A stretch of 39,587 nt of DNA from Candidatus Moraniibacteriota bacterium (lineage in GTDB: Bacteria > Patescibacteriota > Minisyncoccia > Moranbacterales > UBA1568), in the NCBI GenBank assembly GCA_041908545.1, contig JAYRFE010000070.1, positions 1 through 39,587 of the forward strand, in the 5' to 3' direction. Under the pieces are notes generated by a model. It saw nothing but the letters and a program-made list of their open reading frames with translations, made no database searches and was not told the origin of the DNA. The position numbers were made by a program, and so were the translations under genes. Within the stretch, counting starts at the first letter, position 1; each line of letters opens with the position of its first letter. Below, piece after piece: positions 368 to 28,734 of the stretch.

Positions 368-444
368 TGGCGGGAGCGACGGGACTCGGACCCGCGACCT
401 CCACAGTGACAGTGTGGCGCTCTAACCAGCTGAGCTACGCCCCC
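368..444 (-). tRNA. tRNA-Asp (anticodon GTC), CCA encoded
   Basis: Hand-folded cloverleaf: acceptor GGGGGCG/CGCTCCC (one G-U pair), D arm GCTC-AGCTGGTTA-GAGC, anticodon arm CCACA-CTGTCAC-TGTGG, T arm GCGGG-TCCGAGT-CCCGT, discriminator G, CCA. Length 77 nt. Confidence 0.9.
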
Positions 445-539
445 CTTCCTCGTTTTTGGAATCCCTCCCTTCCAAAATCCAGCCTCCATAGTTTGCAATA
501 TGGAGATTGGATTCCGCCAGAGAAAGTCCCGAACTGATG

Positions 540-613
540 TAGCAGGGATGGGAATCGAACCCATGACCTCAGCGTTATGAGTGCTGTGCTCTAACCGGCT
601 GAGCTACCCTGCC
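540..613 (-). tRNA. tRNA with anticodon CAT, elongator type (Met, or Ile2 if lysidine-modified)
   Basis: Cloverleaf: GGCAGGG-TA-GCTC-AGCCGGTTA-GAGC-A-CAGCA-CTCATAA-CGCTG-AGGTC-ATGGG-TTCGATT-CCCAT-CCCTGCT-A. It has the elongator-type pair C11:G24 and a G1-U72 wobble. No CCA is encoded. Confidence 0.85.
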
Positions 614-627
614 TCTCATTCCCTTTG

Positions 628-701
628 TTGCGGGGGGTGGATTCGAACCACCGACCTTTTGGTTATGAGCCAAACGAGCTGCCAGACTGCTCTACCCCGC
701 T
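628..701 (-). tRNA. tRNA with anticodon CAT and initiator-like features (probable tRNA-fMet)
   Basis: Cloverleaf: AGCGGGG-TA-GAGC-AGTCTGGCA-GCTC-G-TTTGG-CTCATAA-CCAAA-AGGTC-GGTGG-TTCGAAT-CCACC-CCCCGCA-A. Positions 1:72 are unpaired (A x A) and the D stem has A11:U24, both bacterial initiator hallmarks. The anticodon stem has only two of the usual three G:C pairs. Confidence 0.8.
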
Positions 702-774
702 ATTCATATTTTCCCGACACCTTGTACTTTCTGAACCGAAATCTTCACTTCTTCCGATATCCGAAGCGGCTCTG

Positions 775-848
775 TGGGCGATCCAAGATTCGAACTTGGG
801 ACCTCGACATTATCAGTGTCGCGCTCTAACCACCTGAGCTAATCGCCC
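775..848 (-). tRNA. tRNA-Ile (anticodon GAT)
   Basis: Cloverleaf: GGGCGAT-TA-GCTC-AGGTGGTTA-GAGC-G-CGACA-CTGATAA-TGTCG-AGGTC-CCAAG-TTCGAAT-CTTGG-ATCGCCC-A. Length 74 nt, with no CCA encoded. Confidence 0.9.
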
Positions 849-927
849 AAAAGACTTCTCTTGAAACGAAAACACCCCACCGAAACATCCGACAACAAAA
901 AAAACCAGCTTCCAAGCCAACGGATGT

Positions 928-956
928 ATAATACCCAAACCACCGAAAAAAATCAA
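928..956 (-). promoter_or_regulatory. Sigma70-type promoter upstream of tRNA-Ile (TTGATT-N17-TATTAT)
   Basis: On the minus strand, the -35 element TTGATT is at 951-956 and the -10 element TATTAT is at 928-933, with a 17-nt spacer. It sits between tRNA-Ala and tRNA-Ile. Confidence 0.5.
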
Positions 957-959
957 GGG

Positions 960-1035
960 TGGTGGACCCAAGCGGATTCGGACCGCTCGCCTCCTGCGTG
1001 CAAAGCAGGCGCTCTACCAAATGAGCTATGGGCCC
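960..1035 (-). tRNA. tRNA-Ala (anticodon TGC), CCA encoded
   Basis: Cloverleaf: GGGCCCA-TA-GCTC-ATTTGGTA-GAGC-G-CCTGC-TTTGCAC-GCAGG-AGGCG-AGCGG-TCCGAAT-CCGCT-TGGGTCC-A-CCA. The G3:U70 alanine identity pair is present. Confidence 0.9.
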
Positions 1036-26010: not shown

Positions 26011-26643
26011 ATGAAATACATCACCTTTTCCGGCGTAGATGGGAGCGGCAAGTCTACTCAACTCGAACTTCTGAGGGAATACCTCATCGGTAAAGGTTTT
26101 AAGGTCGCCTATTTTCACGCAATCGAATTCTCTTTCGCCAATCGGATCGCCCGACGATTCAAAAACATCAAGAACTTCCAACCCGGTCAGGAGAAAGCCG
26201 TCACCAAAACCTCTCTTCTCACGCTTCTTCTCCGCCAAAAACTCCTCTTCCTCGATCTGTTCCGCTTCCGACGGTTCCTCAGCCGACTGGAACGCGAAGG
26301 ATACGACTACGTCCTCTCCGACCGCTCCTTTTTCGACAGCCTCATCCATCTGGAATACCTCGCCCTCCCGCACCGAAAAATACTCCCCTTTCTCCTGTGG
26401 CGCACTCGAAGCGACTTACTTGAATCCTTTCTACCGAAACCGGATATCGCCTTCTATCTCGATCTCGACCCGAAAATCATCATGTCCCGAGAACGCACAC
26501 CTGAACAAGGCATCGAATACCTACACAAAAAACAATCCCTCTTCCGAACGAAAATGAACTCCTGGAATATGCACCTGCTCGCCGCCGATCGGCCGAAAGA
26601 ACTCGTTTTCGACTCACTACTCACCGTACTTCGTGAACGCTGA
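26011..26643 (+). CDS. Thymidylate-kinase-like P-loop kinase
   Basis: N-terminus MKYITFSGVDGSGKSTQLELLREYL (Tmk-type GxDGxGKST P-loop) and a DRSFFDSL motif in the position of Tmk DRY. It lacks the usual TREPGGT segment, so the substrate is uncertain. Confidence 0.6.
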   Translation: MKYITFSGVDGSGKSTQLELLREYLIGKGFKVAYFHAIEFSFANRIARRFKNIKNFQPGQEKAVTKTSLLTLLLRQKLLFLDLFRFRRFLSRLEREGYDYVLSDRSFFDSLIHLEYLALPHRKILPFLLWRTRSDLLESFLPKPDIAFYLDLDPKIIMSRERTPEQGIEYLHKKQSLFRTKMNSWNMHLLAADRPKELVFDSLLTVLRER

Positions 26644-26838
26644 CACAAGACGGAAACCAACGGAAATATCCGGTTCGAGATCCCCCCGATTTCCGTTTCC
26701 GTCCTATCCCAGCCGGAGTCTTGACAGTCCGACTGGATTCCGATACCCTTTCCTGGTAGAGAGAGTTCTTTTTTATTTATCAAATTTCGCACCCTCGAGA
26801 AATGTGTTTTTCATTTCCAAATGAAGAACGTGATTCTC

Positions 26839-27116
26839 GGGGACGCGGAGACGTTAACCGAACGACTGGCACATCACTGCGTCGCAAGGTGGCATCGGTT
26901 CTGGAGCTCGAACCGGCCAACTACGAAAAAACATGATGATGTATCGCCACTGACGAATGAGGAAGTGAAATGATGCTTCATACTTGGTCGAAAACCGCCC
27001 TCTACCCTCCTTGGGCAGGGATTCGACGCGCACCCTTCCGGGCATTCTCGTGAGCAATCTCAGAGCAAGCGCCACAACGACTTCATGGGAACCATCATTT
27101 CTCCGCGTCCCCACCA
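26839..27116 (+). ncRNA. Unassigned structured locus, either an RNA of unknown class or a MITE-like element. A 12-bp terminal helix closes ~250 nt, and the 3' end reads ...CCCC-ACCA.
   Basis: GGGGACGCGGAG (26839-26850) is the exact reverse complement of CTCCGCGTCCCC (27101-27112). This is followed by ACCA and then a hairpin plus T5 (27124-27155). Inside are GGATTCGAC (27019-27027), a hairpin CGGTTC-N8-GAACCG, and GCC AAC TAC GAA AAA ACA TGA TGA (26916-26939). There is no credible ORF on either strand. Confidence 0.35.
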
Positions 27117-27123
27117 TCCTCCC

Positions 27124-27155
27124 GACTAGACGCCAACGTGCGACTAGTCTTTTTC
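27124..27155 (+). terminator. Candidate intrinsic terminator after the structured locus
   Basis: GACTAG-acgccaacgtgcga-CTAGTC followed by TTTTTCTTTTCC. The stem is modest (6 bp, plus an internal 3-bp ACG/CGT). Confidence 0.45.
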
Positions 27156-27264
27156 TTTTCCTCAAGGAAAAAGTTATACTACATTACAAGCGTTGATTTT
27201 ACCATCTCTCCTCTGCCGAAATCATCCTCCCGCGGATTCCGAAATAACGAAATAAGCCATCCTC

Positions 27265-28734
27265 ATGAAAAAATTCTCACAAGCACTTGCCTGGCTCACC
27301 GTTTCCGAAATCATCTTCAATATCGCCGGCTACGTCATCCAATCGGCCGTCGGCCGCATTCTCGGTCCGGCCGATTATGGCCGCTACAGTCTCATCGTGA
27401 CTCTCACGACCATGGTCATCATCCTGATCGGCAACGGAATCCCGACCGCCATGTCGAAGTACCTGGCCGAAATCTTCGAAAGCGCCCCCGAAAAAATACT
27501 CGGCATCAAACGCCAGGCCATACGATTACAGATCCTGCTCATGTCTTCCGTCACGGTCCTCTTCTTTCTCGCCGCACCGCTTCTCGCGCACCTCCTTCAC
27601 GACCCGAGCCTCACTCCGCTCTTCCGTCTTTCCTCCCTCATCATCCCCGCCTTCGCCGCCGCATCCTTCTACTTTTACTACTATACCGGACTGCATTTCT
27701 TCCGCCTCCAAGCGGGACTTAAGATGATGCGCGCACTTGGACGCATCGTCTTCATCATCAGCTTCGCCTACTTCTTCGGTGTCCAAGGCGCCGTATCGGG
27801 CTATATCGCCGCACCACTCTTCATCTTCACTCTCGGCCTCCTGGCTGACATCTTCATCACCCATCGCTACTTTCCGCACGTCAAACAACCGAAAACCGAA
27901 GTCATCGCCTTCTCCGGAAAAACCATACTCACCTACGCCGGACCACTCACACTCTTCCTGCTTTTCTACGAATTCATCCTCACTCTTGATCTCTACTTCG
28001 TCAAAAGCCTTCTTCGAAGCGACTACCTCACCGGTATCTACAACGCCGCTCTCACGGCCGGACGCATCCCTTATTACCTCTTCTACGCCCTCACCATCAT
28101 CCTCCTTCCCGCTATTTCCAAGACGACTGCCGCACGCGACACGAAAGAGACGGAGAATCTCGTCAATAAATCGCTCCGCCTGTTGATATTTCTCCTTTTC
28201 CCCATGGTCACCCTCCTCATGATATACGCTCCCCAAGTGCTTCATCTCTTCTACGGAAACCAATACGCTGCCGCCGAACGACCACTCCAGGTCTATGCGC
28301 TCGGAGTCGGATTCCTTACTGTTTTTTACGTTCTCTCTTTCGCGCTCAATGGTGCCGGACTCGTCAAGATTCCCATGAAGCTGGCCTTCTTCGGATTTCT
28401 CGGCATGATCGGACTCAATTTCCTCCTCATCCCGAAATGGTCGCTCATCGGAGCCGCGCTCTCCACTACGCTCGTCTCCATCGCAGTCGCCATCGCCATC
28501 CTCATCGCCGTAGAGCGGCACTTCCGAGTCCGACTGGCCCCAAAAACCCTCTTCATCTCCCTTGGAAGCGTCATCGTTCTCATATTCGGTTCATACATAC
28601 TCCCGAGCGGTCCATATGGCTTCCTCGTTTCGGGAACACTGCTCACCTGTCTCTATTTCACCCTTCTCCGTTTCTCGGGCGAACTGACCGATACCGATAT
28701 CGCCCCACTCACCCGGCTCTTCAAGAAAAAATAA
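27265..28734 (+). CDS. Polysaccharide/oligosaccharide flippase (MOP/Wzx-type polysaccharide biosynthesis protein)
   Basis: 489 aa with about 12-14 TM segments. The N-terminus LTVSEIIFNIAGYVIQSAVGRILGPADYGRYSLIVTL is typical of Wzx/polysacc_synt proteins. Confidence 0.75.
   Translation: MKKFSQALAWLTVSEIIFNIAGYVIQSAVGRILGPADYGRYSLIVTLTTMVIILIGNGIPTAMSKYLAEIFESAPEKILGIKRQAIRLQILLMSSVTVLFFLAAPLLAHLLHDPSLTPLFRLSSLIIPAFAAASFYFYYYTGLHFFRLQAGLKMMRALGRIVFIISFAYFFGVQGAVSGYIAAPLFIFTLGLLADIFITHRYFPHVKQPKTEVIAFSGKTILTYAGPLTLFLLFYEFILTLDLYFVKSLLRSDYLTGIYNAALTAGRIPYYLFYALTIILLPAISKTTAARDTKETENLVNKSLRLLIFLLFPMVTLLMIYAPQVLHLFYGNQYAAAERPLQVYALGVGFLTVFYVLSFALNGAGLVKIPMKLAFFGFLGMIGLNFLLIPKWSLIGAALSTTLVSIAVAIAILIAVERHFRVRLAPKTLFISLGSVIVLIFGSYILPSGPYGFLVSGTLLTCLYFTLLRFSGELTDTDIAPLTRLFKKK

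Follow-up and report, generated by a model that had tools for sequence, protein, structure and literature searches.

Contig C70 (JAYRFE010000070.1) of the Candidatus Moraniibacteriota assembly GCA_041908545.1 is 39,587 nt long and was analysed as a whole; we refer to it as the window. The assembly (G000) comprises 849 kb in 103 contigs and is 95.5-95.6% complete. On the plus strand of the window, a thymidylate-kinase-like gene, tmk (26011-26643), lies upstream of a gene for a Wzx/MurJ-like flippase (27265-28734). The tmk stop at 26643 and the flippase ATG at 27265 are separated by 621 nt, in line with the gene-free block of about 620 nt reported in the original prediction, which was made from the sequence alone. 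Within this block we describe an element, bounded by an inverted repeat and flanked by promoter-like and terminator-like signals, that may be the gene of a structured RNA. The element is single copy in G000: BLASTN against its own genome, proposed earlier as a search for extra copies, returned the element itself and nothing else.

Five types of the element were compared, namely alleles A, B and C and the versions found in genomes G006 and G008. In the window, which carries allele A, its features are as follows.

26721-26749, plus strand: promoter-like site, with -35 box TTGACA (26721-26726), 17-nt spacer and -10 box TACCCT (26744-26749).
26756-26838, plus strand: 5' leader of about 85 nt from a predicted start site, with 76% mean column identity in the three-species alignment.
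26764-26770, plus strand: conserved AGTTCTT of the leader, for which GAAGAAC of the leader hairpin is a possible alternative partner.
26793-26842, plus strand: leader hairpin, with outer stem CCTCGAGAA/TTCTCGGGG and inner stem GTTTTTC/GAAGAAC.
26839-26851, plus strand: 5' strand of the closing helix P1, GGGGACGCGGAGA, one arm of a 13-bp perfect inverted repeat.
26863-26887, plus strand: hairpin H1 (CGAC...GUCG), ending in the conserved motif GCGTCGCAA (26879-26887).
26888-26892, plus strand: 5' strand of helix P2, GGUGG, pairing with 27092-27096.
26893-27091, plus strand: hypervariable core, 199 nt here and 106-164 nt in the other types, holding a hairpin strand GGATTCGAC and a tag-like frame.
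27092-27096, plus strand: 3' strand of P2, CCAUC, 3 nt ahead of the 3' strand of P1.
27100-27112, plus strand: 3' strand of P1, TCTCCGCGTCCCC, partner of 26839-26851.
27113-27116, plus strand: ACCA directly after P1.
27124-27159, plus strand: terminator-like hairpin (27124-27149) and U-tract TTTTTCTTTT (27150-27159).
27164-27180, plus strand: conserved AAAAAGYTAYAMTAC past the terminator, kept in all variants, G000, G006 and G008 among them, and travelling with the module.

The P1 helix exceeds chance. It had been reported as a perfect 12-bp helix, GGGGACGCGGAG/CTCCGCGTCCCC; the helix is present, but it is 13 bp long, with 248 nt between its arms. No longer perfect inverted repeat was found in the block, and the maximum among 200 dinucleotide-preserving shuffles was 12 nt, reached in 2 of them. 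Over six sequences, 94.9% of P1 cells were paired, compared with 45-77% in slid controls, and the leader hairpin showed 94.1% compared with 42-66%. The search for covariation in orthologous spacers, suggested earlier, gave three compensatory pairs for each of these two helices. In both, G.U wobbles were tolerated on the plus strand only. The leader hairpin contains an invariant U.G wobble, which would be A.C on the opposite strand and favours the plus strand as the strand of the RNA. The minimum free energy of the 278-nt sequence was -103.6 kcal/mol (z = -4.3), and none of 200 shuffles folded as well. The interior alone gave z = -1.35, and most of the folding excess was supplied by the terminal helix.

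The leader hairpin and P1 are mutually exclusive. The 3' strand of the hairpin overlaps the first 4 nt of P1, and the two helices compete for five shared columns (53-57), GGGG(A/G). Column 56 covaried with both of its partners, reading C/G/C in alleles A-C and U/A/U in G006. The hairpin and full P1 were near-isoenergetic, lying 0.5-4.3 kcal/mol apart in A, B, C and E. A further alternative pairing, of AGTTCTT with GAAGAAC, can be read off the sequences and may compete within the leader.

Promoter and terminator assignments rest on conservation among homologues. TTGACA-N17-TAYYMT was present at the same place in all five types. The looser pattern TTGACA-N17-TANNNT occurred 43 times in G000 and about 5 times in shuffles, an enrichment of about 8-fold; this promoter type is genuine for the organism, and function is predicted for the site at the element. 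Of the 43 consensus promoters in G000, 3 have AGTTCTT 10-20 nt after the -10 box, where about 0.05 would be expected. The hairpin and T-tract that the original prediction placed after ACCA were confirmed. The hairpin has 9 bp with one A.A mismatch and the loop CAACGT. A hairpin with a T-run was found in all types, with differing stem sequences in G006 and G008.

Inside P1, a frame of the form P1-J-H1-J-P2-core-P2'-J-P1', with H1 ending in GCGUCGCAA, could be fitted by hand to all five types. GCGTCGCAA was invariant in alleles A, B and C. A hand-picked hairpin at the H1 position and a 4-7-bp helix just inside P1 could likewise be drawn in every type, and P2 showed a G-C to C-G swap between A and G008. 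RNAalifold on A, B and C recovered P1 plus a 7-bp helix flush with the 3' strand of P1; in allele A it took the 5' strand of P2 from the AUGAUG repeat at about 26931-26940, not from 26888-26892. The short helices P2 and H1, picked by eye and modelled, are suggestive only.

The 10-mer CGTCGCAAGG, previously noted at 26880-26889, has five copies in the genome, three of them in the tips of a hairpin-repeat family. More precisely, GCGTCGCAA(GG) at 26879-26889 overlaps the near-invariant tip …GAACACGTCGCAAGG… of these repeats (C59:6722, C70:37523, C70:38610 and others). The H1 motif shares 8-10 nt with the tip, and the 8-mer itself occurs genome-wide at chance frequency; the overlap may reflect a shared binding factor or coincidence. 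The element resembles these REP/RPE-like hairpin repeats of Patescibacteria, which have conserved tips, in combining constant with freely varying parts and in sharing the motif (A/G)CGTCGCAAG(G) within the same genome. Unlike such repeats, it has a constant stem and a varying interior, is present in a single copy, is 4-5 times longer and carries transcription signals.

Further copies came from 12 metagenome contigs reached through the tmk protein cluster, representing strains with 95-99% identical Tmk. The sequences fell into three discrete types: A (G000 and L209), B (eight contigs) and C (two contigs). Between B and C, identity in 60-nt windows was 98-100% in the flanks and 20-57% in the core; their leaders were identical up to GGGGGCGCGGA, and the sequences became identical again from CCTGAACTCATCGTC onward. 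Between A and B the genes were 93-100% identical, the leader 67-83% and the core 28-48%, and 98% identity was restored exactly at the 3' strand of P1. The allele A core showed 28-53% identity to B and C together in 60-nt windows, with flanking genes at 93-100%. What the alleles had in common was limited to short motifs, arranged in one order: GCGTCGCAA, GATGATGT, GGAA-T and GGATTC. One contig, L200, joins a B core to a right-hand spacer of type A, and this mosaic is direct evidence that recombination took place.

Within alleles, all five single-nucleotide differences between A and A2 fell at predicted unpaired positions (P(unpaired) 0.78-0.99, compared with 0.43 on average). Between B and B2, an A-to-G change turned a U-A pair into U.G, and a 3-nt insertion extended a helix. 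In the modelled folds, variation inside an allele spares predicted helices. Together, the conserved frame and the pattern of alleles are well supported.

The synteny of tmk and flippase was kept across the order, and the content of the spacer varied. A search with a leader covariance model (R1) detected the element in 3 of 107 family genomes, and in each of them it lies between tmk and the Wzx-like flippase. These make up 3 of the 10 genus genomes, and G006 and G008 have one copy each at this same locus. The same promoter, leader, P1 and terminator were found at the tmk-flippase site in G006, G008 and the 12 metagenome contigs. Weaker R1 matches in other genomes were rejected as homologues, being promoter-plus-AGTTCTT matches only. 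A pattern scan of genome contigs returned G008, L051 (CAZDRG010000043.1, identical to the G006 locus) and chance matches; among the matches listed, the metagenome scan gave chance matches only. Searched by BLAST in 319 genomes of the order, allele C matched the conserved 3' part in G000 and nothing more. A phage origin was not indicated, as no allele matched any of 50,697 phage records, and pattern-scan matches in IMG/VR were rejected by the covariance model as chance.

The tmk-flippase spacer (26644-27264 in the window; L018-L029, L188-L199) is a cargo hotspot, which is empty or holds a DUF559 gene, an open reading frame, the element, or the element and a DUF559 gene in either order. It is about 25 nt long in G001 and G007, contains a DUF559 gene in G003, G004 and G009, and contains a small open reading frame of about 75 amino acids in G005. 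G006 has the element followed by DUF559, and G008 has DUF559 followed by the element. The DUF559/Vsr-like endonuclease encoded by the cargo gene has 111 amino acids. Between the tmk stop and the element promoter of the window there is also a long imperfect hairpin, GACGGAAACCAACGGAAAT ... ATTTCCGTTTCCGTC (26650-26712), which is partly deleted in alleles B and C.

A hotspot with different cargo in each species, patchy presence in the genus and 12-13-bp inverted repeats bounding a variable segment would suit a relic. P1 would then be the terminal inverted repeats of a defunct insertion resembling a miniature inverted-repeat transposable element (MITE), or a dead gene would lie inside, with no function as RNA; a shared recombinase-binding requirement could also yield covarying inverted repeats. 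We consider a relic quite improbable. Each carrier has one copy at the same locus, and the flanks ...TTCTC|GGGG and CCCC|ACCAT have no target-site duplication, which also leaves the earlier suggestion of a MITE unsupported. Direct repeats in the block were limited to chance-level 9-10-mers located elsewhere than the P1 flanks, and no internal tandem periodicity was found there. Conservation extends beyond the repeats to promoter, leader hairpin and terminator, G.U wobbles occur only on the plus strand, and within-allele changes avoid the predicted helices. Neutral decay, moreover, cannot saturate the core while neutral spacers stay 98-100% identical.

A second explanation is a cis-acting leader or attenuator that gates or insulates the flippase and glycan genes, with the exchange between leader hairpin and P1 as its switch. 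The two near-isoenergetic helices fit this reading, as does position: the element is on the same strand as the flippase and directly upstream of it in G000, alleles B and C and G008, and its terminator lies 115 nt ahead of the flippase ATG. A role in cis nevertheless seems unlikely. In G006 the DUF559 gene separates the element from the flippase, and in sister species tmk and flippase lie about 25 nt apart and no leader intervenes. The competing helix lies at the 5' side and makes no contact with the terminator, and hypervariability between near-identical strains is not expected of a sensing domain. The conserved -10-like box past the terminator, TATACT at 27175-27180, is a possible -10 element for the downstream gene and suggests a separate promoter for the flippase. 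Rfam gave no riboswitch or T-box match for any allele, and with the enclosed domain hypervariable we rejected a leader of either kind.

Several known RNA families were considered. The original prediction had weighed a transfer-messenger RNA (tmRNA) and had itself doubted that it could be a canonical one; these doubts proved justified. ARAGORN, as suggested there, found only five tRNAs in the window (368-1035) and nothing at the locus, and Rfam gave no match in the window at gathering thresholds. At E<=10 on 26600-27300 there was no tmRNA or tRNA-clan match, only a chance-level box C/D sR5 match (E = 4.9) that was not kept in other alleles, and the four other alleles returned nothing from Rfam. 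A genome normally has one ssrA, and a full-length ssrA (98.5 bits) was found elsewhere, at G000:C4:5680-6115; it has a T-arm and GGGGCUGU...GAUUCGAC, of which GAUUCGAC lies near the 5' end. The element's motif GGATTCGAC was present at about 27019-27027, as had been noted.

A second, non-canonical tmRNA or tRNA-like RNA, processed and aminoacylated at its ACCA end, is highly improbable, for all its points of resemblance. Like tmRNA and tRNA-like minihelices, the element starts with GGGG, has a 12-13-bp helix of the length of stacked acceptor and T stems, shows ACCA after it in A, B and G008, and has its own terminator. Allele A also contains the frame GCC AAC TAC GAA AAA ACA TGA TGA, reported earlier and found at 26916-26939, which reads A-N-Y-E-K-T with a double stop (A-N-D-E-K-T in L209). 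This frame is confined to A/A2, however, with nothing alignable in B, C, G006 or G008. ACCA is indeed at 27113-27116 but is not conserved among alleles: allele C has ACTA and G006 has CCCC at this place. In the helix, 13 bp run without interruption, with G3-C70 in place of G3:U70 and no GGUUCGA-type T-loop before the 3' strand, and unlike tmRNA the element has no T-arm, pseudoknots or conserved tag. Lack of a T-arm and of any tRNA-clan match speaks equally against a tRNA-like RNA. SmpB was not found in the G000 assembly despite the full ssrA.

Other observations concern the tRNA ends and the small RNAs of the genus. CCA is encoded in the tRNA-Ala and tRNA-Asp genes and is not encoded in the tRNA-Ile gene or the two tRNA-Met genes (368-1035), and ssrA ends in ACCG. 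An encoded ACCA is therefore unneeded for 3'-end maturation here, and since CCA is not encoded throughout the tRNA set, a CCA-adding enzyme must act on part of it. RNase P RNA is present elsewhere in the genome, 6S RNA was not found in G000, and the RNA of the signal recognition particle (SRP; RF00169, RF01854) was undetected in all 10 genus genomes, where it may be very divergent or interrupted. The element is not the missing SRP RNA, because it is present in only 3 of the 10. Identity with RNase P, 6S or SRP RNA was rejected, as none of them gave an ARAGORN or Rfam match at the locus.

Guide RNAs were considered as well. Arrays of the TIGR (tandem interspaced guide RNA) type are built of tandem units, each about 36 nt long, whose repeats alternate, and lie beside a Tas gene with a Nop domain (PMC12045711). 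A TIGR or box C/D-like guide RNA was rejected for the element: there is no array periodicity, the neighbouring genes are unrelated and the sR5 match is at chance level.

The nearest known architectures are those of retron non-coding RNAs and Y RNAs, and both fail on the defining protein. As in Y RNA and YrlA, a conserved stem formed by the 5' and 3' ends encloses a variable internal module, and the sizes are of comparable order. Unlike them, the element has no tRNA-like module and no Rfam match, and no Ro/Rsr (TROVE, PF05731) gene was found in G000, so the Y RNA suggested earlier is not upheld. The rRNA intervening sequences are likewise helix-bounded RNA segments that vary between strains and occur sporadically; unlike these, the element lies outside any host RNA gene and has its own promoter and terminator, and the sister-species site is an empty 25-nt spacer.

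In architecture, a retron fits well. Retron RNAs (msr-msd) also have 12-13-nt terminal inverted repeats, a hairpin after the 5' repeat, a variable segment closed by a stem, and an accessory, patchily distributed locus, and msd regions vary strongly between retrons. P1 could then correspond to a1/a2, H1 to the msr hairpin and the P2-closed core to msd, making the element a template for a reverse transcriptase. We regard this as very unlikely. No RVT_1 gene was found in the G000 assembly, at its stated completeness, and those of G003, G005, G006 and G008 neither track nor adjoin the element. Downstream of P1 comes a terminator instead of a reverse transcriptase gene, the neighbours are tmk and the flippase, and the 5' leader hairpin competes with the closing helix, also unlike a retron.

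The reverse transcriptase genes of the genus are open frames of 350-390 amino acids in 4 of the 10 genomes (G003:C2, G005:C4/C12, G006:C1/C88, G008:C9/C18) and may belong to diversity-generating retroelements. Identity of the element with such a retroelement was rejected, as G000 has no reverse transcriptase and the distribution of those in the genus does not follow that of the element.

From the reading frames we assessed whether the locus encodes a small protein or toxin on one strand or the other, the helix then being part of the mRNA. On the minus strand, a frame starting from the CAT of ACCAT spans the interior in G000, G006 and G008 (87, 61 and 70 codons), and several short plus-strand frames have a Shine-Dalgarno-like sequence upstream. 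In allele B, however, the minus-strand frame runs into a stop after 11 codons, and promoter and terminator are on the plus strand only. Six-frame translations and Shine-Dalgarno-linked starts in the five types gave no shared frame and no similar or hydrophobic toxin-like peptide. The chance that the element encodes a protein appears slight in the extreme.

The glycan neighbourhood raises one further alternative, an invertible promoter segment for phase variation of the surface-glycan genes, since a segment of about 250 bp immediately ahead of the Wzx flippase is bounded by inverted repeats. Inversion would produce alleles that are reverse complements of one another, and they are not: forward alignment always equalled or exceeded reverse-complement alignment. 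Motif order and strand were constant in 12 contigs and three species, and no recombinase gene was found nearby. We give this explanation next to no weight.

These results support the original view of a discrete, structured and probably transcribed non-coding locus. Our reading, which we hold at about an even chance, is that the element is a single-copy, independently transcribed gene for a structured non-coding RNA, of an apparently undescribed family confined to one genus of Patescibacteria (Moranbacteria-type). Of the explanations considered, the likeliest is that the element belongs to a new orphan family of RNAs, which evolves in an unusual frame-and-cassette pattern.

Several results weigh against this reading. 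The element is missing from the closest sister species, G004, G007 and G003, and is therefore dispensable. Searches of the G000 genome turned up no partner protein, no target and no complementary sequence; in a search for antisense targets, no match longer than 14 nt occurred elsewhere in it. A simple consensus scanner called neither promoter nor terminator at the element, the former because the -10 box is weak and the latter, under a strict scanner, because of the A.A mismatch in the stem. Interior z-scores, negative in all five types, were modest (-1.1 to -1.9), and abstract-shape sampling found no common core fold across them. With only five divergent variants, few covarying pairs could be counted, and H1 and P2 were selected manually. 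The allele contigs are metagenome assemblies, in which each allele recurs in independent samples.

If the locus is such an RNA gene, its behaviour can be sketched. Transcription would proceed from the plus strand. In the nascent RNA, the leader hairpin would hold the G-rich start of the P1 5' strand and leave CGCGGAG free; the P1 3' strand, made about 250 nt later, could dock on CGCGGAG and displace the base of the hairpin. P1 and P2 would close reliably regardless of the core sequence, clamp the core and probably set the ends of a stable or processed RNA of about 270 nt. A cell factor or a processing enzyme may recognise the RNA by its constant frame. The exchangeable core may be a module of specificity, kept diverse by balancing or diversifying selection, as in conflicts with phages, other mobile elements or rival strains.

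At a guess, then, the RNA acts in trans, with a constant frame and a core that sets specificity. A fuller version is a 'frame-and-cassette' RNA, in which a constant fold (leader hairpin, P1, H1 and P2) presents an exchangeable core of 100-200 nt, and old, discrete alleles are moved by recombination. It would be an RNA-level determinant of specificity or immunity (self/non-self, anti-phage or anti-competitor) in episymbiotic bacteria belonging to the candidate phyla radiation (CPR), with no dedicated protein gene at the locus. We advance this version tentatively, as possible and doubtful.

CPR/Patescibacteria have tiny genomes with little space for accessory functions, and the literature searched on their non-coding RNAs held almost nothing. 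If the reading of an RNA gene is correct, wholesale exchange of a core between near-identical strains, alongside an unchanging clamp and leader, would be an evolutionary pattern out of the ordinary for a bacterial RNA. Divergence peaks of this kind are familiar from surface-antigen, restriction-specificity and immunity genes; we know of none in RNA genes. Should the core prove to be a specificity module, it would point to a function in recognition or defence carried by RNA only. Even if the RNA is not transcribed, the locus documents a recombination hotspot between tmk and the flippase.

Signals resembling those of the leader were seen at other sites. A second gene-poor block of G000 (C44:1475-2215, minus strand, about 730 nt; L236) contains TTGACA-N17-TAGCAT, AGTTCTT soon after the -10 box, a 47-codon open reading frame, a GC-rich stretch of about 300 nt and a terminator; it was rejected as a relative of the element, with no sequence similarity and no Rfam match. 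AGTTCTT also stands behind similar promoters in two other genera, at L060 (G061) and L063 (G126). In G126 it is followed by a leader-like hairpin, about 200 nt of sequence and a terminator, upstream of an FNR-like gene.

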